Shown one piece after another: positions 17,671-64,000 of a stretch of DNA of 64,000 bases. The notes under the pieces were generated by a model. It was given only the letters and a program-made list of their open reading frames with translations, had not been told where the DNA came from and did no database searches. Source of the DNA: an uncultured Pseudomonadota bacterium (GTDB taxonomy: Bacteria > Oederibacteriota > Muellerivitia > Muellerivitales > Muellerivitaceae); the NCBI GenBank assembly GCA_963770835.1, contig CAVYRH010000004.1, positions 166,515 through 230,514 on the forward strand. Direction: 5' to 3'. Position numbers and translations under genes: made by a program. The number at the start of each line of letters is the position of its first letter. Position 1 is the first letter of the stretch.

Positions 17671-17671
17671 A

Positions 17672-43316: not shown

Positions 43317-46300
43317 AGTGAAGGTGAGGGTCGGTGTAAAGGTGTCAGTGGAAGTGGGCGTAAGCGTAGTGGTGGAGGTCGGTGTAAAGGTCGATGTCCG
43401 GGTGGGCGAGTCCGTCGGCGTCGAGGTGGCGGTCATGGTTGGCGTAAGGGTGGGTGTGGAGGTGTCCGTAACCGTCGCGGTTGGGGTCGCGGTGAAGGTT
43501 GAGGTTAAGGTGGATGTGACGGTGGCCGTTGGCGTGGCAGTCGAGGTCAAGGTAGCGGTGGAGCTGGGGGTGAAAGTTGGGGTGGCCGTAGGAGTGGCCG
43601 TTTCCGTAGACGTGAAAGTGAGGGTGGGCGTGGAAGTCGCCGTAAAGGTGGGCGTGGCGGTGGGCGTAGAAGAAGGCGTGGTGGTGGGGGAATTCGTCGG
43701 CGTATCCGTGGGAGTGGAGGTGGGCAGGGGGGTTGTGGTATTCGTGGGCGTGTTGGTGGCCGTGGCGGTGGAAGTGTTGGTGGGAGTTAAGGTGGGTGTG
43801 GAGGTCGGCGTCGCGGTCGCAGTGGATGTGGGAGTGGCTGTGGGGGTGTAAGAGGGGGTTGGGGTCATCGTGCTAGTGGGGGTGGCCGTCGGGGATGGGG
43901 TCGGGGTATGGGTGACGGTATTCGTGGCAGTGGCTGTCGCAGTGTTGGTCGGAGTTAAAGTCGGCGTCGTGGTCGCCGTGAAAGAAGGTGTCGAAGAAGG
44001 CGTAGGCGTGGGGGTATTCGTCGGCGTATTCGTGGGGGTGGAGGTGGGCAGAGGGGTTGTGGTGTTCGTGGGCGTGTTGGTGGCCGTGGCGGTGGAAGTG
44101 TTGGTGGGAGTTAAGGTGGGTGTAGAAGTCGGAGTCGCTGTGGCGGTGGAAGTGGGGGAATCCGTGGGGGTACGGGTAGCTGTCAGTGTCGTGGTGTTCG
44201 TCGGAGTGGCCGTCGGGGACGGGGTAGGGGTGTTGGTGGCGGTATTTGAAGGGGTATTGGTCGCGGTAAAGGTGGAAGTCATCGTTGCCGTGGAAGTGGC
44301 CGTGGAAGTGGGCGTGGAGGAAGGCGTGGCGGTGGGGGAATTGGTCGGCGTATTCGTAGGGGTGGAGGTGGGGATGGGCGTTGTGGTGTTTGTGGCCGTC
44401 GGGGTAGCTGTGGCAGTGGCGGAACTGGTCGGGGTCAGGGTGGCCGTGGCGGTTGAAGTATTCGTCGGCGTGTTGCTCGGCGTGTTGGTTGGTGTGTTCG
44501 TCGGGGTGGCCGTAGGGCTGTTGGAAGGGGTTGGGGTGGGCGTGTTGGTCGGAGTGTTGGTGGGCGTATTGGTCGTGGTGGCTGTGGGGGTGTTGGTGGG
44601 TGTATTGGTGGGAGTGTTGGGCAGGGTGTTGGTCGGAGTGTTGGTGGGGGTATTGGTTGGAGTGGCCGTGGGGGTGTTGGTTGGCGTTAAAGTCGGCGTA
44701 TTGGTGGGGGTTGGGGTATCGGTGACTGTCGGCGTGTCCGTGGGCGTGGCCGAGGGGGTGTTGGTGGGCGTGCAGGTGTATCCCACGTTATTGGTCACGG
44801 CGTTGGATAAGAGAGTGGAAGGCTGGGTCTCAAAATTTTCCTCCTCGGCGATATTGGTCACAACCCCGGAACAGGTTCCCGCCGGCAGGGCTCCGACGGT
44901 GACACTGAAGGAAAGGGTTCCCGAAACGCCCGCTGCCAGGTAGTTGATCTGCCAGAGCAAATCCTGCCCCACCAGGGCGGTGACAGGCTGGTAGGGATTG
45001 CTGGTGACCGAATTGGAAAGAAGGTTTGTCCCGGTCGGGATCGTGTCGTTGATTACAACGCCGTCGATGGCGGAGGTGCCGGTATTCTTATAGGCCAGGG
45101 TGTAAGTGATGGTCTGTCCCTGGTTCACCTGGCCGGCCGGGTTGTTGGACTTGGCCAGGGTAATGCTGGGGTTGGGGCAGGAAATCCACTGGGGACAGTC
45201 GAAGTAGCCCCATCCATAATGGCCGCCTTCGCCGCAGTCATATTCGCTCACGACGATGGTGCATTGCTGGCCCGCGTATTGGCACAGGTTGAAGGTATAG
45301 GGGGTCCAGGGAAAAACCCCCCAGTTCGTCCCGTTGGAGGGGTTCACCTGGCAGCCGCCCGCCGCGCCGACCGTTCCGGCGTTGTTCCCCACCAAGCCGT
45401 CCAGGGTCACCAGGCCCGACCCGACCAGGTACTGCCAATTGAGCAGCAGGTCGTAAACCTGCAGGCCGCCCGCGCCGCATTGGCCCCCGCCGATATAAAC
45501 CTGGACCTCCAGGTAGGCGTCGTCGTTGGGGTTGCCCGGATTGTTGAGGTAGTGGTAATTCTCGAAAACACCCGCCAGCTCAAACGACAGGCAGCAAGAA
45601 CCGTTGGTTGGAACCGTTGAACTGGTGCAGACCCGGGCGTAATCGCCATGGTTCGTGTCCCCCCGGCCCGAGAAAAGCTGGTAGGCGCTGGGCTGGCCGG
45701 CCGGGACCGTGTTTAGGAGCCCGTTCGAGTTGGGGGCTATCCCGGGACCCACGGGGACGGCCACCGGGTTGCATGCTACGTTGGCGCCCGTATTAATAAG
45801 GGAGGTCCAATTCGTAAATTCGCTTGAACAGGCATTGGGCCAGGGGATGGGAGTGAAAGTCGGCGTAAAAGTGGAGGTGGAAGTAAAGGTTGGCGTGGGA
45901 GTGTGGGTGAAGGTTGGAGTGAAAGATGCCGTCGGGGTAGAGGTGGGCGTGGCCGTATCGGTCAGGGTGAAAGAGGAAGTGGGCGTGGAAGTGGAGCTAA
46001 GGGTGGCCGTACTGGTAGGAGTGAAGCTGGCCGTCGGCGTGAAGGTTGAAGTCGGAGTGGAGGTGCCTGTGTTTGTCGGTGTCACCGTCGGGGAATTGGA
46101 GGCTGTGGGAGTGGGTGTGGCGGTATTCGTGGGAGTGACCGTCGCGGTGTTGGTTGAAGTCGGAGTCTGCGTTGAAGTTGATGTGGAAGTGGGACTGGGG
46201 GTAGCCGTGCCGGTCGGGGTGTCAGTGAAGATGGCCGTATTGGTCAGCGTGAATGTGAAGGTCGGAGTGGGGCTGGGCGTGTCCGTTGGGGACGCCATGG

Positions 46301-46429
46301 GCGTCGAGGTTGAAGTATCGGTGGGGGAATCGGACGGGGTTAAGGTCTGGGACCTCACCGGCGCGACCGCGAGGAAAGCCAGGGTCGTCAAGATCCATAA
46401 GACCGATCTTACTGGGGACAGTTGTATCA
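41982..46429 (-). CDS. Giant secreted surface protein: signal peptide, PT array, beta-sandwich N-domain, DUF11, 480-aa PT linker, DUF11, 3x FlgD-Ig/T9SS-CTD-like modules
   Basis: ORF open to 46544. The probable start is ATG 46429 (MSEMIQL..) after AGAAGGA. DUF11 motif [23 protein letters not shown].. and C-terminal VRVYNVAGELV...GLYIAVV. Confidence 0.85.
43320..44780 (-). repeat. Long PT-linker codon tandem repeat (ACN-CCN)n, about 1.45 kb
   Basis: Encodes TPTNTPTATPTNTPTNT... The plus strand reads as GVGV artefact ORFs. Confidence 0.85.
45842..46337 (-). repeat. N-terminal PT/ST low-complexity array of giant protein 1
   Basis: SPTDTSTSTPMASPTDTPSPTPTFTFT... directly after the signal peptide. 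Confidence 0.75.
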
Positions 46430-47118
46430 TCTCCGACATTTCAGTCCTTCTTTCGGATTCTAAAAGCCTCTCTGAAACGGGCCTGTTGATTGAACGGAAT
46501 CGGGGGTGTCCAGCGGCAACCAGACGGGCGATTAGGAGGAACAAATGGAAAGATATTTTCTTTTGTTTTTTGCATTAGATAGTTCGAAAAACCACCAAAG
46601 TAATGTGGAAATTCTTCCAACATTCCCTTTTAAATGGGAACGCCCGGAATGGACGCGAATAGGGAATGACGCGATTTCATTCTGAAATCTTCCCGTCTTT
46701 CTGGTTTCCAAAAACGCCTCCTCCATTCGGTTCGCCGGAAATTTTCCGGTGGACACGGAAAAGGGTGACATTTCGACTCTCTCCCCTAAATGAGCACGTT
46801 CAATGCCAGTTCAAAGCGAGTCATGTTTCAAAAAAGAAAATTTGTCCTGGGAAGCGGGTGGAGTAAAACGAGTAAAAATGTCTTAAACACGTCCGAGTTG
46901 TATTTTTTTTGAAAAAGATAACGGCAAATTAATTTGGACGGGAAATTCCTCCTTTTGAAACCGATTGAAATTTTTACATCCGCCGGTTTTTTTAACATCC
47001 CACAGGTGGTATCTAAGAGAACTAGTAGAAAAACCCCTTAAATCGGTTATTTCCCCCCGAATCCGCCTTTATCGTGTTCATCGGTGTTTCACTGACCCCA
47101 TTTTTGCCTGGGTTTGGT

Positions 47119-48453
47119 TTAATGCCGCACCACCAGCTTGGTGGTTTTGTAGACGACATGCCCATTTGGCCCCTCCAAGTCCACCACGGCGATATATAAC
47201 CCGCTTGCCATTCCCCCCGCGTTCCAAACCGCCTGGTCCGCCCCGGAAGGCCCCTGAACCGCCCCCACCAGTTCGCCAGCCACGTCATAAACCCGCACCC
47301 TCAGGGTGAAACCTTGGGCCGAATCCACCGTGAAGACAGCGGCTGTTTGTCCGCCGGCCAGTACATTGGGCTCCACCAACAGCTGACCCGGAACCATCCC
47401 CCGGGATCCGTCCACCACCGATACCTGCTGGGTGACGACTTGGTCGTCCCCGCCGTTCAACCAGGAGGCTTCCACGTAATATTGGCCGTTGGTCACCATG
47501 CCGCCCTGGTCATTGGTGCCGTCCCAGGCCAGCGTCACGCCGGCCCCGGCCATGGCGACCAAAACCGTAATGGACGAGGAGGAAGGAGAAACGGTAGGGG
47601 AACCAGGAGTAACCACGGTGGAGGACAAAACCACGGACTGGATGGTATTGCTGTTGCTTGGCACGATCCCCTGGTAAAGATGTTTCACCACTTCGCCCGT
47701 CTCGTTGTAAACGGCCACGGAGAGGGTGGAAAGGGATCGGTTGACGCCGACGGTCCGGGTGACGGTGGTGACTACGCCGAGGGAGTCGGTGCTTTGGACC
47801 TTGATGAAATACTGGCCGTTGGTGACCTCCGTGCCGTTCTGGGCCGTGCCGTCCCAAGTTGCCACCACGCCAAGGATGGAGACGGCGACGGAGGAAACCT
47901 GGTTGGTCAAGGACGTAGAGGAGAGTTGGAAGGAAGAGATGGTTTGGGCGAAGTTCTGAACCAAGAGAGTTTTCACCAATTCACCAACCGAATTGTAAAC
48001 CGCGACCTGGACGGTGATGGGAAAAACCACAGTGACCGGCGCGGTGACGGACTGCGGCCGGCCACCGGAGAAGACTACTTGGGCATTGTTTAAGAGCACG
48101 GTTTGCTCCACGAGGGTGGAGGAGACGGCGACCGTATAGGGCAGCTGGTAGACACCGGGGTTCAAGGAAGGGAAAGACCAAGCGAGGACAGAGCCGTTTT
48201 CGCCCATAGCCTCACCCACCACGGAAGGCGAGGGCTGGCCCAGGCCCAAGAAAGCAACCTGAGCGGGCAGGGTGTCGGTAACTTGGACGTTGGAGGCGGT
48301 GGAGCCGGAAACGGACAGGAGGATTTTGTAGGTGAGGGTGTCCCCCGGGTGGGCGGAGGTTTCGGAGGCGGATTTTTGGATTTGGATGCCGGGCGTGGGG
48401 GTGGAAGTGTTGGTGGGAGTGGGCGTAAAGGTGAAGGTGAGGGTGGGGGTGAA
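47119..48453 (-). repeat. Paralogous duplication unit B (matches 41982-43316)
   Basis: Same as above. Confidence 0.8.
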
Positions 48454-49950
48454 GGTATCCGTGGGAGTGGGCGTGAGCGTGGGTGTGAAGGTGGGTGTGA
48501 AGGTCGGGGTTTTCGTGGGAGTGGCGCTTGGAGTGGGCGTATCGGTATTCGTGAAGGTATAGGTGGGTGTAGGGGTTGGGGTGTTTGTGGGTGTAAGGGT
48601 TGGGGTGTTGGAAGAGGTGTTGGTGGGGCTGTTGGTCGGGGTGTTGGTGGAGGTAGAGGTGTCCGTCATGGTGGGCGTGGATGTGGAAGTGGCCGTGGCG
48701 GTTGACGTTGGGGATAAAGTGGGAGTCCAGGTTAAGGTCACGGTGGGTGTTAAAGTGACTGTGAAAGTATTGGTGGCAGTGCCGGTATTGGTGCTCGTGG
48801 CCGTGGCGGTGAAGGTCGGCGGACAGCCAACGACCGTATTCGTAACGGCGTTGGAGATGAGCCCGGCGGTTTCCAGGTCGGACTCAACGGCGGTGTTGGG
48901 GATGTCCCCACAAGTGGAGCCAGCCACCACCTGGAAGGAGACGGTCCCGGTGTTGCCCGGATAAAGGTATCCGACGTCCCAAATCAGGTCATTGCCGATC
49001 ATGGCGGTGGCGGGGATGCTGGGACTGCTCCCCATGGACCCGGGGACGAAGGCCGTGCCCGTAGGGACGGTATCGTTGATCACCACTCCGTCGATGGGCG
49101 AGGTGCCCGTATTGGCGTAAGACAAGGTATAGGTGATGGTTTGGCCCTGGTTTACCTGGCCCGTAGGGCTATTGGCCTTAGTGAGGGTAATGCTGGGGGA
49201 GGGACAGACCCCCCAACTGACGTCGTCCAAATAGCCCAGGCCGAAATGCCCTCCCGCCACGCAGTCGTAATCGGTGACGCGCAATGTGGCCTGCTGGCCC
49301 GCGTATTTGCAGAGGTTGATGGTGTATTGGGTCCAGGGAAGGTAGCCGAAATCGTTGCCGCCATCATTGCCACCCCCCCCACCGCCTGCGTCCTGGCAGA
49401 AGCCGGTGTTTCCGACTCCCGTCAAGCCATTCACCACCACCTGGCCCAAGGTATTGGACCAGGTGTAGCGCAAGCTGGCCACCGTCGTGCCCCCGACGAG
49501 GACTTCCACTAAAAGATAAGTGTCCCCAGCCAGGTCGCCTTGCAAGTAATGGTGGTCCTCAAAAACAGCGGCGAACCAGAAAGAAAGGCAGCAGGTACCG
49601 TCAGTCGGCACCGTATCGGTTTGATAGATCTGGGCCCAGTCGGCGTGGTTATTGTCGCCACGGGCCGAAAAGAGCTGGGCGGCGTAGTTGCCGGTGTGGA
49701 CCTGGTTCAAACCGGCGGGGGCCAGGGGGCCGGCGGAATCGGGCGCGACGCCCACGGGAACCACGGTGACACTGGGCGGGGCGCAAACTACGTTGGGGCC
49801 CGAGGCGATCGCGGTGGTCCAGCCGGTCAGGTTGCCCGTTTCAAAACCGGGGTTCACCCAGGCTTGCGCGCTGGAGAAACCCGAGGCCGTGAAGAGCAAT
49901 GGCAATAGGAAGGTTCGCGAGGAAGAGAAAAGACTCATTAGTTTTGACAT
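47119..49950 (-). CDS. Giant secreted surface protein, paralog 2: signal peptide, beta-sandwich N-domain, DUF11, PT linker, DUF11, 3x FlgD-Ig/T9SS-CTD-like modules
   Basis: 943 aa. Signal peptide ..GFSSAQA. N-domain [10 protein letters not shown] (CBM-like). Same architecture as gene 1 but with a short PT linker. Confidence 0.88.
48438..48828 (-). repeat. PT-linker tandem repeat in paralog 2
   Basis: [49 protein letters not shown]... Confidence 0.8.
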
Positions 49951-51313: not shown

Positions 51314-51651
51314 GGAAATGGAGTTTATTTACAATAAAAAAGGCCGCACGCTCCGGAATTCCGGAGATCAGGGGCTCACCCAGTTTTTAGTGGTAGTGGC
51401 CCGTACTCTGATGGACTGTGCGACCTTTTTTCATTTTCTCCCATCCTTCGATGGGTACAAGTGGAATCTTGAAATCCCGGATTATTTTTAGCGCATAAAG
51501 CAGGCCAGTAAAAAAGAACCGGCCGAAAAATAAAAAACGCTTTTTTAACAGGCTGGGAAAAAATAGAACAATCTATTTTCAAAACAACGCTTTTGTAAAA
51601 ACGTTTGAAATTAAAGATAAAAGTGTCCTCCGAAAACCTCCCGAAGTTTGC

Positions 51652-53874
51652 GTGGGAGAACGATCTTTTTTGGGCTATAACTATTTGAGTTTTGTTGAGC
51701 ATCCAAAGCGGCTAAGGAATTTTTTGGAATTTTTCAAAAACACCCAGGTGAAAAAAGCGGCTTTTCCGGCAGTGTTTGTTTTAGCCGCATTGGGCCAATG
51801 GTTCATGGCCCAAAACCAGGCAACGGCAACCGTTTTTCCGGCGCTGTTTTTTTACGCTTTCGCGCTTTATCTTTGGTTTCTCACTTTAAAAAAAGAGAAA
51901 ACCGGACTCCTGGATGAAAAGCCCCTGACGGCCCGGCTGGAATGGGTGTTGTTTGGCTTTATCCTTTTAATAGCTTTTTTTTTAAGGGTTTATGAGCTTG
52001 ATCAAATCCCTTCGGGCATCTACCTGGATGCCTCAGGGCCCGCCCTTTACGCCCTTAAAATGCTTCACGAGCATTTTAAGCCCCCCTTTATGCTTCCCGC
52101 CTTCGCGGCCAATCCTTCGTATTTGGTGTATCTTTTGGCAGTTTGGTTCCGTTGGTTTTCCCCGACCCAGGTGAACCTGTTCCTGTTTTACGTTGTTTTC
52201 GCCATGGCCGCTTTGCCTTTCATTTATTGGACTTTTCGCCAATTGGCAGGCCCCCAGTCCGCTCTTTTAACCGTTTATTTCATCGCCGTCATGCGGTGGC
52301 ACATGGTTTTCAGCCGAATCGGCTTTCGGGGAATCCAGGTTCCCTTTTACATGTTTGGAACCCTGGCGTTTTTTCTCTACGGTTTAAAACTCAAGAAAGG
52401 TTGGCCTTTTTTCCTTTCCGCGCTGTTTTTAACAGGCGGGTTATACACTTATCAATCCTTTAAAGCATTCCCTTTAATGATGTTGATCCTGTTGGTTTAC
52501 GAGCATTTCAAAAACCCCAAAACGCTGAAAGCCCTGGCGGTTCCCCTCCTGGCATCGGCCGCTTTGTGCGGTTTCTTCACGGTTCCCTTACTCCATTACT
52601 GGAACCAGCAGGGCAGCCTGGGAACCCGGGAATCGCAGATTTTTATCGGGAAAGAGGTGGTCCAGGAGAAAAGCCTGCGGCCCTTGGCGGAGAAAGCCCT
52701 GCAAACCGCCTTGATGTTTAACCGAAAGGGCGAAGAACAACCGCGGCATAATTTCAAAGATCACCCAATCCTCGACGATGTCACGGGGCTCTTTTTTATT
52801 TTGGGTTTTTTCCTCGCGCTTTGGAAATTCCGGCAAAAGCCTTATTTTTACGCGGTTTGCGGCTTTTTCGTCATGAGCCTGCCCGGCCTGCTTTCCAGCG
52901 AGGAAACCCAATCTCATCGGATGCTGGGCGCCCTCCCTTTCGCGGCTTTTTTCGCGGCCGGCGCGGTTTTAACCTGGCGCAAGGGCATGGCCGAGCGTTT
53001 TCCTTCCTTTCGTCCCTGGGTTAACGGCCTCGTGATGGGGCTTCTGATTTTCGCGGCCATCGAAAATATCAAAACTTATTTCGTGGACCAGGCAGGGGAT
53101 TATGACTGTTGGAGGGATTTCAACATCGAGGCTACGACCGTTGGGAAAACCGTCGTCCAGCACCCGAACACGGTCTTTTACCTGGCGCCGGCCTTTTACG
53201 ACCATTTCACGGTTCAATACCTGGATTATTTCGAGTCCAACCGCGTCCATTTACTGGATTTGGGGGAAATGAACCATCTACCTCTGGATACCCGCCTTTC
53301 CAAGATTTGCTTCGTCCTGGACGAGGGAAAAAGTCCGACTTTGGCCTTTTTGAAAGGCCTCTATCCTCAGGGACAGGAAGAGCCTTTTAAGGACCGGTAC
53401 GGGAAAACACTCGCGTTTTTTTATTACGTTTCGGGCCAGGTAAAACCGATTTCGTTTCAAAAGGGCCTCCAAAGATGGGAAAACCCTAATGAAAACTCTC
53501 CCGACTTGGTCTCCACCGGACTTGTACAAGACCCCCTCATTAATTTCACTAATATCGGCGATTTGGGGGTCAGCCATCCGCCGGTTTTGGCGGTTTGGAA
53601 GGGGAAAATTCGTATACCGGCAACGGGTTCTTACGGTTTTCTCATTCTCACCCAAGATAAAGGAGAATTGGATTTGGATGGCCGGAAAGTGGTGGAGAAC
53701 CTTCAAGGTGGGGAAGAAGTGATCCGCTTGACGGCAGGGTGGCATTCCGTCGAGCTAACCTGCCAGAGGGACAATAACCCGGATGTGGCCCTGGATTTCC
53801 ACCTTCTCTGGAAAAAGCCCGGTAACCTCAACTATGAAGTCGTTCCGAATTCGGCTTTCGGGAAAATCCGATAA
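51652..53874 (+). CDS. GT39/PMT_2 (ArnT-like) membrane glycosyltransferase fused to a C-terminal PA14 domain
   Basis: Polytopic N-terminal 450 aa with PMT/ArnT-like loop motifs. C-terminus GSYGFLILTQDKGELDLDGRKVV.. is PA14-like. Confidence 0.6.
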   Translation: MGERSFLGYNYLSFVEHPKRLRNFLEFFKNTQVKKAAFPAVFVLAALGQWFMAQNQATATVFPALFFYAFALYLWFLTLKKEKTGLLDEKPLTARLEWVLFGFILLIAFFLRVYELDQIPSGIYLDASGPALYALKMLHEHFKPPFMLPAFAANPSYLVYLLAVWFRWFSPTQVNLFLFYVVFAMAALPFIYWTFRQLAGPQSALLTVYFIAVMRWHMVFSRIGFRGIQVPFYMFGTLAFFLYGLKLKKGWPFFLSALFLTGGLYTYQSFKAFPLMMLILLVYEHFKNPKTLKALAVPLLASAALCGFFTVPLLHYWNQQGSLGTRESQIFIGKEVVQEKSLRPLAEKALQTALMFNRKGEEQPRHNFKDHPILDDVTGLFFILGFFLALWKFRQKPYFYAVCGFFVMSLPGLLSSEETQSHRMLGALPFAAFFAAGAVLTWRKGMAERFPSFRPWVNGLVMGLLIFAAIENIKTYFVDQAGDYDCWRDFNIEATTVGKTVVQHPNTVFYLAPAFYDHFTVQYLDYFESNRVHLLDLGEMNHLPLDTRLSKICFVLDEGKSPTLAFLKGLYPQGQEEPFKDRYGKTLAFFYYVSGQVKPISFQKGLQRWENPNENSPDLVSTGLVQDPLINFTNIGDLGVSHPPVLAVWKGKIRIPATGSYGFLILTQDKGELDLDGRKVVENLQGGEEVIRLTAGWHSVELTCQRDNNPDVALDFHLLWKKPGNLNYEVVPNSAFGKIR

Positions 53875-53879
53875 GGGCG

Positions 53880-54851
53880 TTACTTCGAGTCGGCGGGCGG
53901 GGCGGGGTTTTCCTCCACCGGCTTTTGGGTTTCTTGAAAAAGAAAAAGGGTCCCCCAGACCTTGCCCGAAAGGGTGGTACCGGAGGCGCTGTCCAGACGG
54001 AACCGCTTAGGTTTATTGTTCCAAACGATGTCCACATATTCCCGCTTGAGTTCCTTCCGGTCCTTTAGGGATTGGGCCATCCTCGCGCCGATTTCCCCCA
54101 GGGCGTTCTCCTTAAAAAGGTACAAATTAGTCAGGGATTTGGGGTTCATCTCCAGGATTTTCCCGACGGGCGCGTTGACGAAAAAAATGTTTCCATCCGT
54201 GGAAACGGCCAGCGCCCCAATGGGAAGTGAATCCAAAACGTTCTTCAGAGTGGCCGCGTATTCCAAGGCCATTTGGTCGCCTTCCTTCACCCTTTCGGAC
54301 AAAAGGCGCGCCTTCCGGACTAGGTCAGTGATTTCCTTTTCCTCTTGGACGGTCCGGAAGGCCAGGTAGGCCGAATGGATGGAAACCACGAAAAGCAGGG
54401 CGCAGGACAAAAGCAGGAAGGGGTCCATGTAATTGAAGTTGTCGCTTTTGACGTAAACCAAGTAAATGTAGAGGGCCACCACCGCGATGGCCACGAAGAG
54501 GCTTCGCCCCACGGACTGGCTCAAGGCCGAAATGAAAAAGGTGAGGAAGGTCAGGATGAGAAGGTTGGTCTCGAAGCGGTCGAAGAGATAAAGCCCGGCC
54601 AGGAGAAAGACGAAGTCCATGGAAAAGACAATGTATTGGAAGCGCACCTTCCCAAAGACATCCTCCTTCAGGAAATAAAAGGGGAGAAAAGTAGCCGCCA
54701 GGGCCAGGGCATAGGCCAGCACGGTGATTTTTTGATCCGGGTGGGCCTGAAGGAAAAGGAAGGCAAAACAATAAAGCGTGAGCGCCAGCAACAAGCGGAT
54801 CAAGAAGATGTTCTTCTTGACGCGGGGTGTGGCTTGTTGGATTTCACTCAT
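53880..54851 (-). CDS. Membrane-anchored stand-alone PAS-domain protein
   Basis: 5 TM helices, then a PAS-like fold (LDSLPIGALAVSTDGNIFFVNAPVGKILEMNPKSL). No kinase, GGDEF or other output domain. ATG 54851. Confidence 0.55.
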   Translation of the reverse strand: MSEIQQATPRVKKNIFLIRLLLALTLYCFAFLFLQAHPDQKITVLAYALALAATFLPFYFLKEDVFGKVRFQYIVFSMDFVFLLAGLYLFDRFETNLLILTFLTFFISALSQSVGRSLFVAIAVVALYIYLVYVKSDNFNYMDPFLLLSCALLFVVSIHSAYLAFRTVQEEKEITDLVRKARLLSERVKEGDQMALEYAATLKNVLDSLPIGALAVSTDGNIFFVNAPVGKILEMNPKSLTNLYLFKENALGEIGARMAQSLKDRKELKREYVDIVWNNKPKRFRLDSASGTTLSGKVWGTLFLFQETQKPVEENPAPPADSK

Positions 54852-54948
54852 GGGGGGTTGAAAACCTTTTTTTATTGCCACAAAATCCACGGAAACATTT
54901 TTAAATGTCAAAGTGCCGTGGATTCCATCATAAGGCGGGCCAATTTCC

Positions 54949-55885
54949 ATGCAAAGCCAAAAGACAACCTATCCCCCCAGTGTGTGGCTGGCCCTGGCCT
55001 TGGTCTATCTCGTTTGGGGTTCCACCTATTTGGGCATTCACTTCGCTATCCAGTCCATCCCTCCCTTTCTCATGGCGGGAGCCCGCTTTTTAACCTCCGG
55101 CCTGATCCTTTTCGGCTTCGCCGTTTTATACGGCCTGGCTTCCTCCAAGGGATTTCCCCGGATCACCTGGGGCCATTGGAAGTCTTCCGCCGTCATCGGT
55201 TTTTTCCTGTTGCTCATCGGCAACGGCGGCGTGTGCTGGGCCGAACAAAAGGTGCCCTCCGGCATGGCGGCCCTCCTCGTGGGGACGGTGCCCCTTTGGA
55301 TGGCACTCTTGGAATGGACCTGGAAAAAGGGGTCAAGGCCGGGGCCCCAGGTTTGGATCGCCTTACTGCTGGGGTTCACGGGGATCGCCGTCTTGGTTCT
55401 GCTCCGGCCCGGGGATGGGCCCTTGCGGGTGGACCCCCTTTGGGCCCTCTTGCTGGTGGGAACCTCGCTGGCCTGGTCCTGGGGCTCCCTTTACGTCCGG
55501 TCCGCGTCGCTCCCTTCCTCCGCCCTCCTCGCCACGGCCCTGGAAATGATCGCTGGGGGCTTTCAGCTATTGGTGGCTGGGTTCCTGCTGGGGGAACCCA
55601 GCCGGTTCCACTTCTACCAATTGACCACCTCCTCGGTAGAGGCCTGGGTTTACCTGACGCTGGTGGGTTCGCTGATCGGTTTTACCTCTTAATATTTGGG
55701 TCCTGCAAAAGGCCACGCCGGGCTTGGCCTCTACTTATGCCTTCGTGAACCCCGTCATCGCGGTCTTCCTGGGCTGGCTTTTGGCCGGGGAGGCCCGCTC
55801 GCCTTCCCTTTCCCTGGCGGCGGCCCTGATCGTGACGGCTGTCATCCTGATCACCCGCGCCTCCCCCCGAAACCGGGGGAATTGA
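54949..55885 (+). CDS. EamA/DMT-family transporter. Apparent +1 frameshift at about 55687-55691.
   Basis: The first 247 aa end at ..IGFTS then TAA. The conserved C-terminal half (NIWVLQKATPGLASTYAFVNPVIAVFLGWLLAGEA..) continues in the +1 frame to TGA 55885. Confidence 0.8.
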
Positions 55886-55937
55886 GCGGTTTTTAATTCC
55901 CACGGTTTCCCCGGCATTTCATTAAAATCCCTCCAGG

Positions 55938-57239
55938 TTGATAACTCGAAAGACTGGCGGCTTTCCCATGGGCGAAACCATCTCGAACATCGCGGTCATC
56001 GGCGGCGGCGCGGCGGGGTTGACGGCCGCCTATCTGCTCCAACAACATTACGTGGTCACCCTCTATGAAAAGAACAACTACGCGGGAGGGTACGCCAATA
56101 CCGTTGTGATCCCCAACGGGCCGGATAAGGGAAAGCCAGTGGATACGGGTTTCACCCTGCTGAACGACCAGACCTATCCCACTTTTCGCCGGCTATTGAA
56201 CCGTCTGGGGGTTGCCATCCGTCCCAGCGAATTTTCTTTCGGCTATTGGGACGAGAAGAGCGGGCTGCAATACGCGGCTACCGGCCCCAACGGCTTTTTC
56301 GCCCAGAGGTCCAACCTATGGAATTCCGCCTTCTGGAAAATTCTCCGCGAGTGGGTGTGGTTCAAGCGCCGGGCTTGGCGGGACATGACCACGGGGAAAC
56401 TTGATTCCCTTACCCTGGGGGAATACATCGAGCAGGGGAAATTTTCCGAAGGGTTCTCAAGGGACTGCCTTCTTCCCCTGGGATCGGCCATCTGGTGCAC
56501 CTCCGTGAGGGAAATGAAACAGTTTCCCGCGGCCATGTTCGCAAGAGTTTTGGAGGGTTTTGGTTTTTTGGGCCAATCCCGCCGACTTCAGTGGCAGACC
56601 GTGGAGGGGGGGAGCCACAACTACGTCAAGGCCATCGTGAGAACATTCAAGACGCGGGTCCGGCTGGGCGACCCCGTGGAGGAAGTGAAACGGAAGAAGG
56701 AACAGGTTTTGGTGCGCACCCGGGCCGGCCAGGAACAGGCTTATGACAAGGTAGTATTGGCATGCCACGCGGACGAGGCCTTAGGGCTTTTGGCCGACCC
56801 CAGCGAAGAGGAACAAAAACTTCTTTCGGTATGGAACTACCAGAAAAACAACGCCGTCCTCCACACCGACCGGGACGTCATACCGCCCCTTAAAAACGCC
56901 TGGGCCTGCTGGAACTATGTGCGGGAAAGGGACGCCACGCTGCCCCAGCCTGTTTCCATGACCTACCACATCAACCGCTTGCAGGGGCTGGAGTCCCAGG
57001 AACCCTATTTCGTGACCTTGAACCGGGTACGGCCCATTCCCGAAAGATATATCCTCAGGGAAATGTATTACACCAACCCCACTTTTACGATGACAGCGGT
57101 CGAATCCCAAAAGGAGCTGCCCCGCCTGAATGGGGCCAACAATACCTATTATTGTGGCAGTTACTTTGGAGACGGCTTTCATGAGGATGCGGTGAAATCG
57201 GCCGTGGCGGTGGCTCAATGCTTTGGCATCGATTTATGA
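55938..57239 (+). CDS. NAD/FAD-binding amine-oxidase-like oxidoreductase (COG2907, CFA-synthase-associated family)
   Basis: VIGGGAAGLTAAYLL Rossmann motif. Family usually linked to lipid-modification loci. Alternative start ATG 55968. Confidence 0.7.
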   Translation: MITRKTGGFPMGETISNIAVIGGGAAGLTAAYLLQQHYVVTLYEKNNYAGGYANTVVIPNGPDKGKPVDTGFTLLNDQTYPTFRRLLNRLGVAIRPSEFSFGYWDEKSGLQYAATGPNGFFAQRSNLWNSAFWKILREWVWFKRRAWRDMTTGKLDSLTLGEYIEQGKFSEGFSRDCLLPLGSAIWCTSVREMKQFPAAMFARVLEGFGFLGQSRRLQWQTVEGGSHNYVKAIVRTFKTRVRLGDPVEEVKRKKEQVLVRTRAGQEQAYDKVVLACHADEALGLLADPSEEEQKLLSVWNYQKNNAVLHTDRDVIPPLKNAWACWNYVRERDATLPQPVSMTYHINRLQGLESQEPYFVTLNRVRPIPERYILREMYYTNPTFTMTAVESQKELPRLNGANNTYYCGSYFGDGFHEDAVKSAVAVAQCFGIDL

Positions 57240-57300
57240 GGGAACTCCAACGAAAAACTGTCGGGGACTGGTAAAGGCCTGTCGAAATCTTATGATTAAC

Positions 57301-57322
57301 TGTGGGAATAATTAATCCCACA
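57301..57322. promoter_or_regulatory. Palindrome TGTGGGA-N8-TCCCACA upstream of the desaturase gene
   Basis: Perfect 7-bp inverted repeat with an AT-rich 8-nt spacer, 290 bp upstream of the desaturase start. Confidence 0.4.
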
Positions 57323-57612
57323 ATACCCTGAAGACCATCTCCCATTGGGAGGGGTTGGCGGTGTTGCCACAATGTATGGATTTTTGCCGCTTCAACGGGG
57401 CAAGGAACCCACCCAGAGGCTGTTTTAAGGTGATAACGCTCCACCCCCGGGGTATAATTTCGTTGGGAATGAACGTCTTCCAAAGGCGCGCTTTTCCTGC
57501 GGCGGCGGCCCGGTTTTTCGTATGGCAGGCGGTTCTGACAAACTCCCTTCCCTCTGCGCTTCAATCGGCGCTGGCCCGTCCAAAATCAAATTTTTGAGAG
57601 GTGTTTTTCCTT

Positions 57613-58608
57613 ATGCTACCAGCTGATGCCGAACCAATAACAATCCAATCCCTAACCCAACCCATCCTCATCCAAACCCCAACCCAACCCGCCGCCGACG
57701 CGGATACCCGCCGGAATTTCCTCCGAACTTTCACCAAGGACGAGCAAATCGATTGGGGCGGCAGTATTCCCTTTTTCGGCGTGCACGTCATCGGCCTCCT
57801 GGCTTTCCTCACCGGAGTCAGCTGGGCCGCTATCCTCATGTGCCTCTTCATGTACTATTCCCGCATGTTCGCCATCACGGGGATCTACCATCGGTACTTC
57901 TCCCACCGCACCTACAAAACCAGCCGGTTCTTCCAGGCCGTCATGGCCTTCTGGGGCACTTCCTGCGGCCAGCAGGGGCCCCTTTGGTGGGCCGCCCATC
58001 ACCGCCATCACCATAAATACTCGGACATGCCGGAGGATATCCATTCACCCGGTTTGCGGGGCTTCTGGTGGTCCCATTGGGGATGGATCCTCTGCAAGCG
58101 CTACGCGGACACCAATGAGCTTGCGGTCAAGGACTTGACCAAGTATCCCGAGCTCAAATTCATCAACAAGTACCATGGATTGGCCCCCTTCATCCTGGCC
58201 ACGCTCATCTTCTTCTTCGGCTCTTTCCTCCAACACGCGGCCCCGCAATTGCACACCAACGGCTTACAGATGATGTGCTGGGGCTTCTTCACTTCCACCA
58301 CCCTGCTTTACCACGGCACCTTCACCATCAATTCCCTTTCCCACGTTTTCGGGAAAAAGCGGTTTGAAACCGGAGACGACAGCAAGAACAATTTCATCCT
58401 GTCGTTGATCACCATGGGGGAAGGGTGGCACAACAACCACCATAAGTTCCCTTACGCCGAGCCGCAGGGCATTTACTGGTGGGAAATCGACATGTCACAT
58501 TATGTCCTGAAGGTGTTTTCCTGGTTCGGCCTGGTGTGGGATATTCAAACCCACCCCAAGGAACTCTTTGCCGCTGCTAAGAGCCTGAAGAGCGAAGCGG
58601 CCGCGTAA
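57613..58608 (+). CDS. Acyl-CoA (stearoyl-CoA-type) delta-9 fatty-acid desaturase
   Basis: Three His boxes HRYFSH, HHRHHH, HNNHH in a 4-TM topology. Confidence 0.88.
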   Translation: MLPADAEPITIQSLTQPILIQTPTQPAADADTRRNFLRTFTKDEQIDWGGSIPFFGVHVIGLLAFLTGVSWAAILMCLFMYYSRMFAITGIYHRYFSHRTYKTSRFFQAVMAFWGTSCGQQGPLWWAAHHRHHHKYSDMPEDIHSPGLRGFWWSHWGWILCKRYADTNELAVKDLTKYPELKFINKYHGLAPFILATLIFFFGSFLQHAAPQLHTNGLQMMCWGFFTSTTLLYHGTFTINSLSHVFGKKRFETGDDSKNNFILSLITMGEGWHNNHHKFPYAEPQGIYWWEIDMSHYVLKVFSWFGLVWDIQTHPKELFAAAKSLKSEAAA

Positions 58609-58670: not shown

Positions 58671-58713
58671 GGAGTTTAGGGATTAATATGATTTAAAGAG
58701 CGGGAGTGTAAGC

Positions 58714-59169
58714 GTGAACCTTTATTTGATCCTGAAGTTTCTGCACGTGGTTTTCGCGGTGGTGGCGGTGGGGTTCAACCTCAGCTACGGTTTTTGGCTG
58801 GCCCGCGCCCGCAAGAACCCTGAAAATCTGCCGTTCGTGCTGAAAAACATCAAGGTCATGGATAGCGCCGTTGCTAACCCCGCCTATATGGGTTTGGGAA
58901 TTACCGGACCCCTCATGGCCTGGTTAGGCGGCTATTCCTGGCATTCTTTTTGGATATGGATGTCGGTTCTGCTTTTAGTCTTGGCCGCGATCCTGGGCAT
59001 CGTGGTTTATTCCCCCCTCCTCAAAAACCAGATCCGGGCCTTGGAAACCCAAGGCGCGGATTCGGCCGAATACAAGGCGCTGGAACTTAAAGCCACCCAG
59101 CTCGGCTTTGGGCTTATCGCAATCGTAGCGATCATCATCTTCCTGATGGTGACCAAGATCCAATTTTAA
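58714..59169 (+). CDS. DUF2269-family membrane protein
   Basis: 151 aa with 4 TM helices. GTG start. Confidence 0.6.
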   Translation: MNLYLILKFLHVVFAVVAVGFNLSYGFWLARARKNPENLPFVLKNIKVMDSAVANPAYMGLGITGPLMAWLGGYSWHSFWIWMSVLLLVLAAILGIVVYSPLLKNQIRALETQGADSAEYKALELKATQLGFGLIAIVAIIIFLMVTKIQF

Positions 59170-59206
59170 TCCCCACTTTAAAAAATCCACCTCAAAGATA
59201 AATTTT

Positions 59207-61048
59207 TCAGCAGCACCCATACTCCGGCATTTCGTGGCCCTTGTGCGAGGAGTCGTGCACGGCCTTGGGGTGCTTCTTCTTCACTAAAATCTGGTACCAG
59301 CGGTGGAAGGATTCCCACAAGATCACGACCGCGCAAAAGAGGATGACGCTCGTCACCGCGATATTGATCCAGGCGTTAAAGGACTTTTGGGGGTCGGCGG
59401 CCAAGAGATAGTTGTTGTGGATGATCAAAACGCAGGCGGTCAAGGTGGTGACGCAAACAAACAGCATGGGAACAAGGGTAAACCAGGCGTATTTAACCCT
59501 GCCGGAATTGATGATGGCGCTGGTGGCCACCGCCAGGGCCACCCCCGCGAGAAGCTGGTTGGCGGCCCCGAACATGGGCCAGATGGTGCTGACGTTGCCG
59601 GTCCAAAGAAGGTAACTCCACAGGAAGACCACCAGGGCGGTGCATAAGACCGTGCCGGGCACCCAATCGGTTTTCTCCACGGGTTTCCAGAACCGGCCCA
59701 GGAATTCCTGCATCAGGAATCGGGCCACGCGCGTTCCCGCGTCGATGGTGGTGAGGATGAAAAGAGCCTCAAACATGATCATGAAATGGTAGAAGTAATC
59801 CATCAGGCCCTGGAGGCCCGGGATGCCCGAGAAAATCTGCGCGAAGCCCACGGCCAGGGAGACCCCGCCCCCGGTGCGCCCCACTAGATTCTCGCCCACC
59901 GCTTGGCTGAGCTCCTGCAAATGGACCGGATTCAGGCCGAGCGCGGCGAACTTCTCCGCGGGAAGGTTGATGGCGAAATAGTCAGCGGGGAATAGGGAAC
60001 AGGAAGCCAAAAGCGCCACGATGCCCACCAGGCCCTCCATCAACATGGCCCCGTAGCCCACGAACCTCGCCTCCGATTCCCTGTCCAGCATCTTGGGGGT
60101 CGTGCCCGAGGCCACCAAGGCATGGAAACCCGAAATGGCCCCGCAGGCGATGGTGATGAAAAGGAAGGGGAATAACTTCCCGGGAATAATGGGCCCCCCG
60201 CCGTTGTCATAGGCTGTAAAAGCCGGCATTTGAAGGTAAGGATGGACCAGGATGATGCCCAGGACCAGGCCGCCAATGGTGCCGATCTTCATGTAGGAGC
60301 TCAAGTAGTCCCGGGGAGCCAGCAGCATCCAGATCGGAAGGACCGAGGCGACGAAGGCGTAGAGGCTCAAGAGAACAATGATCTGGTTCCGGGGGAAGGT
60401 GAAACAAGCCGCCAGGGCCGGCGGAAGGAACTTGCCGAAAACAACCGCCAGGAACACCAGGGTGACCCCAATGAGGCTGGCCTCGCCAATTTTCCCGGGC
60501 CGGATGCGGTGCATCCAAAAGCCCACCAAAAGGGCGATAGGGATGGTCATTCCAATTGAGAAGGTTCCCCAAGAGCTCTCCTTCAGCGCGCCCACCACCA
60601 CGATCCCCAAACCCGCCAGGGCCACGACCACGATGAAAAAGATGGCGATGGAACCGACGGCCCCCGCCAGGGGGCTGATCTCATGCCGCGCGATTTCCGC
60701 CAGGGATTTCCCCTTGCGGCGGATGGAGGCCACCAGGATCATGAAATCCTGCACCGCCCCCGCCAGGCAAACGCCGATCAAGAGCCACAGGAAGCTCGGC
60801 ACGTAGCCGAACTGAGCGGCCAGGACGGGGCCGATCAAGGGGCCCGAACCCGCAATGGCCGCGAAGTGGTGGCCGAAGACCACCCATTTGTTGGTGGGAT
60901 GGTAGTTCTGGCCGTCTTTCAGGCGATGGGCGGGGGTGGTCCGCTTGTCATTGAGGGCCACCACCTTCAAGGCCAGGAAGCGGCTGTAAAAGCCATAGGC
61001 CGCGGCCATGACCAGGAGGGCGGGAAGGATCAGCCAAAGGACGTTCAT
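59207..61048 (-). CDS. cstA: Carbon starvation protein A (peptide/pyruvate transporter)
   Basis: CstA family conservation throughout (NKWVVFGHHFAAIAGSGPLIGPVLAAQFG). ATG 61048 after AAGGAG. Confidence 0.88.
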   Translation of the reverse strand: MNVLWLILPALLVMAAAYGFYSRFLALKVVALNDKRTTPAHRLKDGQNYHPTNKWVVFGHHFAAIAGSGPLIGPVLAAQFGYVPSFLWLLIGVCLAGAVQDFMILVASIRRKGKSLAEIARHEISPLAGAVGSIAIFFIVVVALAGLGIVVVGALKESSWGTFSIGMTIPIALLVGFWMHRIRPGKIGEASLIGVTLVFLAVVFGKFLPPALAACFTFPRNQIIVLLSLYAFVASVLPIWMLLAPRDYLSSYMKIGTIGGLVLGIILVHPYLQMPAFTAYDNGGGPIIPGKLFPFLFITIACGAISGFHALVASGTTPKMLDRESEARFVGYGAMLMEGLVGIVALLASCSLFPADYFAINLPAEKFAALGLNPVHLQELSQAVGENLVGRTGGGVSLAVGFAQIFSGIPGLQGLMDYFYHFMIMFEALFILTTIDAGTRVARFLMQEFLGRFWKPVEKTDWVPGTVLCTALVVFLWSYLLWTGNVSTIWPMFGAANQLLAGVALAVATSAIINSGRVKYAWFTLVPMLFVCVTTLTACVLIIHNNYLLAADPQKSFNAWINIAVTSVILFCAVVILWESFHRWYQILVKKKHPKAVHDSSHKGHEMPEYGCC

Positions 61049-61117
61049 GAGGGCTCCTTGAAGGGAATGAACTCTTACCATAAACGATGGTAAAACCCCC
61101 CGTCAACCTGAGTGCGG

Positions 61118-62440
61118 TCAGGTTTTTGTTTTCGGCATAAACCGCTTACGGGCCCACTCGTAAAAGGATTCTTTGTCCAGGGGCCGGGCCACCAGCTCGG
61201 CGGCCAGGGCGGAAAGCATGATGGGGAAGATGGCCACGTGGTGGTCGGTCATTTCCACCACCAGCACGAAGGCCGTGAAGGGCGTACGGGTGACGCCGGT
61301 CAAAAAGCCCGCCATACCCAGCAGAATCAGCAGGTTGGCCGAGCCGGTGTGAAACAGGGAATCCAAAACCGATCCGGTGCAGGCCCCGGCGGCCAGGGCC
61401 GGCGCGAAGATGCCCCCCGCAGAGCCGGAAACGTAAAAAACTAGGGACCCGATGGCCCTCAGGAAGGGAAGATCCCAGGTGGATTTTTCCCCCTTGAACA
61501 GCAGGGTGTTCATGACTTCCAAACCCGATCCGCCGGCTTGGGGGTTCAAAAAAACCAGCCCCGCCATGAAAAGACCGCAGGCTATTACTAAGATTGCCCA
61601 TTGGACCTTGGTTTTCAGCCGCTCCCGCCAGGTGAGGAGCCACTTGATACCCATTCCATAAAAGGCCCCAAAGGCTCCGCTCACCAGGCCCACCGCCAGG
61701 GCGATCCATAATATGGAAATCGGCACGTTCCCGATCTGGGGATAGCCCAGGTAAAGGTAGCTTCCGAAAATCCACTGGGACACCAGCCCGGCAATGATGA
61801 TGGAACTGATGAGCACGGTGCGGAACCGGCGGAAGTGGATGGACATCTCCTCGATGGCGAAAACGATGCCGCCCAGGGGGGTATTGAAGGCGGAAGCCAG
61901 CCCGGCGGCGGCACCGGCCACAATCCAGGCCGAGGAATCGGATTCGGAGCGGAAGCGGCGGAAAAAGCGGCCCACGCCGTGGAAAATCCCCGTGGAAACC
62001 TGGATAGTGGGGCCTTCCCGGCCAGTAACGGCGCCCCCCAGGGCGGCCAAAAGGGAGCTGGCGATCTTTACGGCCACCGCCTTGAGGGAAAGGAGCCGGT
62101 CCACCCATTTCTTGTCCCGCTTGTAATTTAGGTCGTTAGCAGCCAGGACCTGGGGAATGCCGCTGCCGGTAGCCTCGGGCGCGAGGAAAACCACCAAGGC
62201 CCAGGAAACCAAAAGACAAAGGGGCGTCCAAATCCAGACGGCTTGGGGATGGGAAGCGATGACCGCTCGGTAGGCAGTTTCAGTCATTTTGAAAAGCCAA
62301 GCGTAAGTGACACAGGTGAAGGCGGCCAGGAAGGCCGAAATCCAGAAGGCCAGGGTTTGGAGATGGTCGCCGTAAGCCAGGAAGGTTTGGACCATCCGCT
62401 TCAGTGGCACCAGCGAAGGCCGGGGGGACTTTCTTTTCAC
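61118..62440 (-). CDS. ClC-family voltage-gated chloride channel / H+-Cl- antiporter
   Basis: GSGIPQ, GREGP and GxFxP selectivity-filter motifs. Confidence 0.85.
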   Translation of the reverse strand: MKRKSPRPSLVPLKRMVQTFLAYGDHLQTLAFWISAFLAAFTCVTYAWLFKMTETAYRAVIASHPQAVWIWTPLCLLVSWALVVFLAPEATGSGIPQVLAANDLNYKRDKKWVDRLLSLKAVAVKIASSLLAALGGAVTGREGPTIQVSTGIFHGVGRFFRRFRSESDSSAWIVAGAAAGLASAFNTPLGGIVFAIEEMSIHFRRFRTVLISSIIIAGLVSQWIFGSYLYLGYPQIGNVPISILWIALAVGLVSGAFGAFYGMGIKWLLTWRERLKTKVQWAILVIACGLFMAGLVFLNPQAGGSGLEVMNTLLFKGEKSTWDLPFLRAIGSLVFYVSGSAGGIFAPALAAGACTGSVLDSLFHTGSANLLILLGMAGFLTGVTRTPFTAFVLVVEMTDHHVAIFPIMLSALAAELVARPLDKESFYEWARKRFMPKTKT

Positions 62441-62570
62441 TTCGAAACCTTTCCTCCGAAATGGCGATCCAAGCGGAGAGGGATTCTACAGAATAAAAGG
62501 GGCAAAAAGATAGCTGTACGCAGGGGAAGCCCCCTTTTCTTTTGAGCAAGGATTCGGCTAGAGTAAACCT

Positions 62571-63353
62571 ATGGCCGACGAAAACCTAACCAGCCCAATC
62601 CTTTCAACCCAACCCAAAGGTTGGGTGCGATGCCTTTCCCTTGCGGGTTTCCTGTTTGCCCTTGCGGCGGTCCTTCTCGCGGTTTTTTCAGGGTTCGGAA
62701 CCAAATGGGGCTGGTGGGATTTCCGGCTTGGGTTGAAGCTTTTCTTGTATTCCGCTGGGGCGGGAGCCGTGGGGCTGGTTCTTTCCATCGTGGGCTTAAG
62801 TCTTTTCAAATACAGGGGTGCGGGACTTTTGAAATATGTCTTGGGAGCCCTCTTGAGCCTTCTCATCACGGGTAATTTTTTGGTGCGGTTTCACTTCGCC
62901 AAACAGGTCCCCCCCATCCATGACATTACTACCGACACCCAGAATCCGCCCCTGTTCGACGACACCCTCCTGGCGCTGCGCAAAGGTGCCCTGAACCCAC
63001 CCGAGTACGGAGGCCCCTCCGTCGCCGAACAGCAGCAAAAGGCCTATCCCGATCTTAAGCCGGTCGTTTTGGAGAATTCCCCGGCCAAGGTTTGGGAAGC
63101 CTGCCTGGCCGCGGCAAAAAAAATGGGATGGGACATCGACGCCATGGATGAAGCCCGCGGGCGCATTGAAGCCACGGATACCACTTTCTGGTTCGGCTTC
63201 AAGGACGACGTCGTGGTGCGGGTGACACCGCAGGGGAGCGGAAGCCGCGTGGATGTCCGGTCCGTCTCCCGGGTGGGAAAAGGGGACGTCGGCACCAACG
63301 CCAAGCGCATCCGCCGTTTCCTGTCCCAAGTGCGGTCGGCCTTCGGAGCCTAA
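62571..63353 (+). CDS. DUF1499-family membrane-anchored protein
   Basis: N-terminal TM helices, then the conserved IHDITTDTQNPP.. DUF1499 core. Confidence 0.65.
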   Translation: MADENLTSPILSTQPKGWVRCLSLAGFLFALAAVLLAVFSGFGTKWGWWDFRLGLKLFLYSAGAGAVGLVLSIVGLSLFKYRGAGLLKYVLGALLSLLITGNFLVRFHFAKQVPPIHDITTDTQNPPLFDDTLLALRKGALNPPEYGGPSVAEQQQKAYPDLKPVVLENSPAKVWEACLAAAKKMGWDIDAMDEARGRIEATDTTFWFGFKDDVVVRVTPQGSGSRVDVRSVSRVGKGDVGTNAKRIRRFLSQVRSAFGA

Positions 63354-63356
63354 AAC

Positions 63357-63710
63357 TTGGTCCGGGTGAAGCGAATGTACCTTCCCGTGGGAAAAAAGGA
63401 CGGCCAGCGATTCCTTGCGGACCGCTTTTGGCCCCGGGGCGTGAAAAAAGAAAAAACCCGGCTTTCGACTTGGATGCGGCAGATCGCGCCCAGCGAAATC
63501 CTACGCAAATGGTTCGGCCACGATCCCGAAAAATGGGGAGATTTCCAGAAACGCTACCGTTAGGAATTGGTGGGCCATGGGGAATTCCTCAAGGCCCTTC
63601 TTCAAACCGCCCGCAAAGGTAAGGTGACCCTTCTTTTCGCCGCTAAGGATGAGAAGCACAACAACGCCGTCGTGCTAAAGGGTTATTTGGAGCACCGGTT
63701 GAAATCGTAG
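63357..63710 (+). CDS. DUF488 (YeaO-like) protein interrupted by an in-frame TAG at 63561-63563
   Basis: MVRVKRMYLPVGKKDGQRFLADRFWPRGVKKE...FQKRYR-TAG-ELVGHGEFLKALLQTARKGKVTLLFAAKDEKHNNAVVLK matches DUF488 across the stop, in the same frame. Confidence 0.75.
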
Positions 63711-63715
63711 GTTTT

Positions 63716-64000
63716 TCAATTTGGGGAAGGATTACCAAGGGATATCCCTTCCCGGTTCAGGCGGCCGTTTTTCAAGATGAAAAAATAGAATCCGTCATGG
63801 GCTTCGGGCCCGTCCCAAGGTTTGTAATTTTTTTCCATCCAGGGGCGCAAAGGTGTTTCCATCCAAAACCGAAGGTCTTCCCGCGAGGAAGGCTTGCCGA
63901 CCACGAAAACCTCGGGTGGTGAGGCTTGTAGTTGTCCCAGAGTTTTAAGAGTGTAGTTCTGCCGGTGAGGGCCCTCGTAAAGGGGAGCGGAATAAAAGAT
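63716..64000 (-). CDS. Hypothetical protein, C-terminal fragment (open to the window edge)
   Basis: The minus-strand frame is open from 64000 to the stop at 63716. No family recognised. Confidence 0.3.
   Translation of the reverse strand: MFYSAPLYEGPHRQNYTLKTLGQLQASPPEVFVVGKPSSREDLRFWMETPLRPWMEKNYKPWDGPEAHDGFYFFILKNGRLNREGISLGNPSPN

Follow-up and report, generated by a model that had tools for sequence, protein, structure and literature searches.

The window analysed here, a stretch of 64,000 nucleotides, belongs to a 779,338-bp contig recorded at NCBI and ENA. Close to its right-hand end lies a gene of the DUF488 family, preceded at a distance of 3 nt by a DUF1499 gene and broken by an in-frame TAG. 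The reading frame opens with a TTG at 63357 and ends at 63563 with this TAG, around which the letters (63552-63572) read CGC TAC CGT TAG GAA TTG GTG. Past the premature stop the same frame remains open until a natural stop, which is also TAG. The features of the locus are the following:

62571..63353, + strand: DUF1499 gene, upstream neighbour, 3 nt before the DUF488 start (gene table; conserved DUF1499-DUF488 pair)
63357-63710, + strand: whole DUF488 gene (contiguous Pfam match through the TAG)
63357..63563, + strand: N-terminal part of DUF488, 68 codons, TTG start (Pfam E 4e-23, profile 1-68)
63561..63563, + strand: premature TAG; ancestral codon AAG (Lys), changed by a single A-to-T transversion (AAG in relatives)
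63564..63710, + strand: C-terminal part of DUF488, 48 codons, closed by the natural TAG of 63708-63710 (Pfam E 1e-9, profile 74-116)
63753..63777, + strand: terminator-like hairpin with a T-run, downstream of the natural DUF488 stop (consensus scan, a pattern match alone)

Read through the stop, with X in its place, the gene encodes 117 aa, of which residues 1-116 match PF22752 (DUF488-N3i) over profile positions 1-116 of 131 in one unbroken alignment (E 4e-40). The score of 137.8 bits is well above the gathering cut-off of 27, which places the protein in the DUF488 family, and PF04343 (DUF488, YeaO-like) is matched with 101.4 bits (cut-off 22.2). The match across the TAG is far above chance, and it bears out the preliminary description of this DNA, which had been made from the letters and their open reading frames and had placed an in-frame TAG inside a DUF488 gene with conservation on both sides. 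An uninterrupted ORF of about 112-130 codons is not found, the TAG standing at codon 69. DUF488 homologues numbered 2252 at E<=1e-3, and those listed are 112-156 aa long and carry no interruption. A gene caller chose an ATG at 63375, generating a truncated product of 62 aa. Exact look-up recorded this product from NCBI, ENA and Logan, and from no entry beyond these.

Apart from the stop, the gene is undamaged. Its C-terminal part retains all the residues that are invariant in the family (G88, T91, D98, N102, N103, A104, V105 and L107), there are no indels, and identity to relatives is ~70% in the N-terminal and C-terminal parts alike. Since the two parts are equally similar to relatives and nothing else is broken, the mutation must be recent. 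Translation starts from TTG in the window, and the aligned codon of relatives is GTG or ATG. Taken alone, the intact remainder of the gene agrees as well with a sequencing error or a read-through gene as with a very young pseudogene.

An alignment of 24 relatives shows only sense residues in the column of the stop (seven Arg, six Lys, four Glu, two Ala, and one each of Ser, Gln, His, Ile and Thr), with Lys in five of the six closest DUF488 proteins (~70% identity). At the DNA level, the codon is AAG in each of five contigs with an orthologue at the corresponding locus (L093-L097), in the context TAC-NNN-AAG-GAR. Relatives therefore carry a sense codon, as had been stated earlier, and because that codon is AAG a single A-to-T transversion suffices to produce the TAG, the two being one mutational step apart. 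In L093-L095 the gene order is CLC channel-DUF1499-DUF488, with the same gap of 3 nt between the last two genes as in the window; in L097, DUF488 is followed by a CHASE3/PAS histidine kinase and YbjQ, the same genes that lie beyond the locus here. This conserved synteny with an intact DUF488 in distant relatives indicates that an intact gene at the locus is the ancestral state. The best homologues are 70-72% identical, and no intact homologue above 72% identity was present among 5.8 billion proteins. Neither the protein collections nor an exact-flank scan of JGI metagenomes revealed other samples with this allele, and a scan of genome contigs yielded solely relatives of 60% identity or less, with no sister genome among them.

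The structure modelled was that of P0002 (pLDDT 95), the closest of the intact homologues, which has the same length as the protein of the window and aligns with it without gaps. The model contains strands at residues 2-6, 17-20 and 90-94 and helices at 31-34, 47-53, 57-72, 75-87 and 103-116. Residue 69 is located inside helix 57-72, and the part beyond it comprises helix 75-87, the core strand 90-94 and helix 103-116. For the DUF488 fold, a sequence search of the PDB returned nothing, and Foldseek with the P0002 model gave no significant match. In the history that we propose, DUF488 would have lost Lys69 in this strain or population through one base change from AAG to TAG, and translation would end after residue 68. 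The compact alpha/beta domain would thereby lose 41%, a portion that takes in two helices, the core beta-strand and the invariant stretch TLLFAAKD..HNNAVVL. Judging from the model, the truncated product would almost certainly be non-functional, that is, the change would amount to a loss of function.

The TAG is also present in a second assembly. Logan contigs are a k-mer assembly of those 31-mers of a single run that occur at least twice. Contig L001 of run ERR11523672 (6844 bp) is 100% identical to window positions 60869-64000, TAG included, contig L098 is 100% identical to 51353-58317, and a third contig of the same run matches 17043-18265 perfectly. Over these 11.3 kb (3132 + 6965 + 1223 bp) the Logan contigs and the window show 0 differences. 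If Logan does require each 31-mer at least twice, the T at 63561 is backed by several reads. The independence of the Logan and source contigs is partial, as the source contig may itself have been built from the reads of ERR11523672, the two then differing in algorithm and not in data. An assembly artefact should be missing from independent assemblies of the same strain or a near-identical one, and both the TAG and a frameshift in eamA, described below, are found in Logan. We infer that the TAG is probably biological and not a read-level error.

A sister strain is represented by a 330-kb contig (ERZ25039491:contig_66206, L007) which is 99.84% identical to the window over positions 18979-39876. 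In these 20.9 kb we counted 33 SNPs and one indel, the SNPs being synonymous in 22 cases, non-synonymous in 10 and intergenic in 1. They are real strain differences under purifying selection, with dN/dS roughly 0.15. Identity by blastn falls to 97% over 53.9-58.7 kb; the CstA, CLC and DUF1499 genes reach only 74-79%, and beyond the divergent region the value is again 97%. The sister contig has neither DUF488 nor the 530-aa ORF next to it, as blastn and the gene tables both show, and DUF1499 is directly followed there by the CHASE3 histidine kinase. The region can be delimited as follows:

58673..64000 and a further ~1.4 kb to the right of the window (L001 1-4525), no strand assigned: strain-variable block of ~6.7 kb (blastn of L007)

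The block holds the genes for DUF2269, CstA, the CLC channel, DUF1499, DUF488 and the 530-aa ORF. Its contents are 74-79% identical to the sister or missing there, and the sister flanks are 97-99.8% identical. At the corresponding position the sister carries DUF4337 and an extra gene of 674 aa. From its sequence the block seems to have undergone exchange or remodelling among strains, resembling a genomic islet replaced by recombination. DUF488 would accordingly be an accessory gene within a recombination-prone, strain-variable block. It is intact in distant relatives, deleted in the sister and mutated to a stop here, which indicates that it is dispensable in this lineage; no accelerated divergence can yet be detected inside the gene. 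One strain having deleted the gene and the other carrying a stop in it is a pattern typical of dispensable accessory genes. In the sister contig itself, ThyX (Thy1) appears at L007 18353-19988 as three gene calls (152, 104 and 130 aa). The split calls suggest either that this long-contig assembly has frameshifts of its own or that thyX has decayed.

The preliminary description had counted four disruptive lesions in the 64 kb, and all four are there, among about 55 genes. The three that accompany the TAG consist of one extra base each:

54978..55879, + strand: eamA transporter segment, extra base at ~55689-55690 (TCT[T]AAT) leading to a premature TAA (segment absent from the sister contig)
28087, + strand: extra C in korA (AA[C]TTAC vs AATTAC), missing in L002, L003, L004 and L099
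10594..10596, + strand: extra base in nuoD (TCC[A]TCG or TC[C]ATCG) that splits the 417-aa NuoD (sister protein P0382 intact)

These lesions do not behave alike. Correcting the eamA frame restores the second EamA repeat, which the frameshift had removed, and the frameshift is reproduced exactly in Logan contig L098. Seen against the sister contig, eamA, a gene for a drug/metabolite transporter, appears as a strain-specific insertion, and its disruption looks real. At the korA site the window reads TTCAA[C]TTACGCC, and three sister assemblies (L002, L003 and L004), together with the 84%-identical L099, read TTCAATTACGCC; L099, with its intact AATTAC, was the sole find of a scan of JGI metagenomes at this site. 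KorA, the alpha subunit of 2-oxoglutarate:ferredoxin oxidoreductase, is an intact protein of 607 aa in these four contigs and is split in the window. At the nuoD site the window reads GAA TCC A TCG AGC, and the intact sister protein P0382 (417 aa) reads ...EIEESSSIIEQ.... The truncated KorA (377 aa) and NuoD (351 aa) are recorded only from the long contig at NCBI and ENA. Their presence on that contig speaks against an artificial alteration of the letters analysed here. Exact look-ups in the Logan assembly gave neither the repaired nor the truncated form of either protein, so that the Logan contigs probably break at these points. Both insertions are missing from every sister assembly examined, as expected of artefacts. 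With a strain dN/dS of roughly 0.15, genuine frameshifts in two core genes of energy metabolism are unlikely as established differences, and the nuoD and korA insertions are probably consensus artefacts or very recent deleterious variants. As a speculation, each could stem from a mixture of strains that differ by a synonymous SNP at a third codon position, the consensus having set both alleles in series (AAT/AAC giving AACT, TCA/TCC giving TCCA), with the AAC and TCC alleles being hypothetical.

The four lesions therefore form two groups, one in accessory genes (DUF488 and eamA) that look real and one in core genes (nuoD and korA) that look suspect. The preliminary description had leaned to consensus errors for the whole set; the idea remains plausible for nuoD and korA, where the sisters are intact, and does not hold for the TAG and eamA, which Logan reproduces. 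Its alternative of an organism undergoing gene decay applies to the two accessory genes and not to the genome as a whole. Sister genomes had been named there as a comparison to make; what they show is a sister without DUF488, and korA and nuoD intact.

Putting this evidence together, we think that in this strain or population DUF488, as a dispensable accessory gene, has probably undergone a genuine nonsense mutation not long ago, seen as the TAG. The disruption of eamA, a second strain-specific accessory gene whose lesion Logan reproduces, counts in favour of a real TAG, and the weakening of the DUF488 start to TTG in favour of a pseudogene. Counted against a real TAG are the two suspicious single-base insertions in core genes of the same assembly. 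They also feed a competing explanation, in which the organism has AAG and an error of base calling or of the consensus entered both assemblies as TAG from the same reads, possibly long reads at low coverage. We regard this as unlikely, though it has several observations on its side. Three single-base insertions fall in conserved genes of the window, those in nuoD and korA being absent from sisters and without reproduction in Logan. Strong purifying selection on the strain SNPs makes a real frameshift in korA surprising, which points to some assembly error in the record. The 779-kb length of the source contig and the Flye-style sister name "contig_66206" suggest a long-read metagenome assembly, and Nanopore-only assemblies (Flye, one round of Medaka) exist for similar material, with no established link to this window; a likeness to the long-read data of Microflora Danica is conjecture. 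The kind of lesion, however, is not typical of such an error. Systematic errors of long reads are usually homopolymer indels and methylation-linked transitions, and an A-to-T transversion outside a homopolymer is atypical; the TAG is a substitution of just this type and not an indel. Further, the k-mer assembly yields the same base, within 11.3 kb free of Logan differences, and genuine decay is to be expected in a gene which, like the one holding the TAG, has been lost from the sister strain.

It is also conceivable that the gene is still used. The TAG could be decoded to give full-length DUF488, whether as pyrrolysine, by a natural suppressor tRNA for amber codons, by programmed read-through or under a reassigned code. 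The perfectly preserved frame downstream of the TAG would agree with this, as would the rarity of TAG, which is the least frequent stop in the window (the 59 greedy ORFs end in TAA in 32 cases, TGA in 22 and TAG in 5). However, low TAG use is common in bacteria, and the five TAG ends include the DUF488 lesion itself and one probably spurious ORF. The natural stop of DUF488 is also TAG and lies at the usual C-terminus of the family, where reading on would add 25 unrelated residues, and three other genes end in TAG, so that TAG terminates DUF488 and three other ORFs in what would have to be a reassigned code. Internal TAGs are limited to this one in about 55 genes of the window. No homologue or relative has a TAG at this column, the codon being AAG in relatives, and conservation of the UAG is not seen. 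The 64-kb window contains no tRNA or tmRNA gene according to ARAGORN, no pylT (tRNA-CUA) or pylS, pylB, pylC or pylD, and no Rfam family at the gathering score; permissive Rfam thresholds gave chance-level weak hits alone near the TAG, and the 120 nt 3' of it fold no better than shuffled sequences (z -0.9). Stop-codon suppression, raised in the preliminary description together with a search for amber-suppressor tRNAs and recoding signals, consequently finds no support in ARAGORN, Rfam or folding within the window, in the AAG of relatives or in the natural TAG stop, and we consider decoding of the TAG extremely unlikely. Among the candidates rejected were weak HIV_FS2 matches on both strands, which reflect a small palindrome, GGGCC..GGAATTCC..GGCCC, that is not conserved in relatives. 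A hairpin (63572-63597, GGGCC-ATGGGGAATTCCTCA-AGGCCC) containing an EcoRI-type GAATTC palindrome begins 9 nt past the TAG; it is unconserved and statistically unremarkable.

Alternatively, DUF488 could be made in two pieces, with translation stopping at the TAG and restarting at the GTG at 63570 (or the TTG at 63567) by means of the Shine-Dalgarno-like AGGA in T-AGGA-A, and with the two peptides assembling afterwards. The AGGA (63562-63565) does lie 4 nt ahead of the in-frame GTG, and the C-terminal ORF (47 codons) is open and fully conserved. But AGGAATTGG is ancestral, relatives having AAGGAATTGG, and was thus not selected for a restart; the spacer is short, the break falls inside helix 57-72 of the model and not in a loop, and no split DUF488 homologue occurs among the matches listed of the 2252. 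This arrangement is very unlikely. Considered jointly, a UAG at codon 69 that is partly read through, by a tRNA of the pyrrolysine type or a natural amber suppressor from another part of the genome, or that serves termination and reinitiation for a two-piece DUF488, is very improbable. Were it true, read-through or restart would explain the perfect preservation of the 48 downstream codons.

The recent nonsense mutation that we favour resembles the "internal stop" pseudogenes annotated by PGAP, in which one point mutation interrupts an otherwise intact family member that is accessory and variably present among close strains. The DUF488 gene differs from the ordinary ones in showing no secondary decay yet, and in nothing essential. 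The nuoD and korA lesions, in turn, are reminiscent of the indel artefacts of long-read (Nanopore or PacBio) metagenome-assembled genomes, with one-base insertions splitting core genes, although these two insertions lie outside homopolymers (AA[C]TT and TCC[A]TCG). The TAG differs from such artefacts in being a substitution and in being reproduced by a second assembly. In pyrrolysine-containing genes, such as the methylamine methyltransferases of Methanosarcina, some Firmicutes and Deltaproteobacteria, homology likewise continues downstream of an in-frame UAG; in those cases, however, the UAG is conserved among orthologues, the genes belong to specific enzyme families and the genome carries pylTSBCD, whereas the DUF488 orthologues here have AAG. 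At a pyrrolysine or read-through site one would expect a UAG conserved among orthologues or a conserved RNA element downstream; relatives have AAG, and Rfam gives no match at the gathering threshold. An in-frame TAG within a coding region is also what recoded phages and candidate lineages with TAG reassignment display, but reassigned genomes have many of them and shun TAG as a terminator, while the window has a single case and uses TAG to end DUF488 itself. Overall, the locus is best described as an ordinary internal-stop pseudogene, a sequencing error being far less likely.

For annotation, this means that the gene should be entered as a pseudogene with an internal stop, neither as two small ORFs nor as a candidate for recoding. 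Disrupted genes within one metagenome-assembled genome call for separate judgement: those of nuoD and korA are to be treated as probable artefacts before any conclusion on metabolism, for instance that this organism has a defective complex I or reverse TCA cycle. There is no consequence for the biology of the genetic code unless the improbable read-through were true.

Several other features of the window were recorded in the course of the analysis. TAA is the dominant stop (32 of 59 greedy ORFs) despite a GC content of 55%. Two giant ORFs on the minus strand (41982-46544 and 47119-49950; 1520 and 943 aa) match DUF11 and FlgD-Ig, and a match to the Por/T9SS C-terminal sorting domain is weak and below the cut-off. 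Their DNA has long imperfect tandem repeats of 12, 24, 48 and 324 nt, a strong GC skew of 0.25-0.35 and a GC content of ~61%; from their sequence they are probably repetitive, Thr/Pro-rich surface proteins. Between them and the gene for a 740-aa membrane protein, the segment 50001-52000 has a GC content of 43%, compared with about 55% elsewhere. Finally, a DUF4431 ORF (11470-11937) is located between nuoE and nuoF, an unusual insertion in a nuoA-N order that is otherwise canonical.
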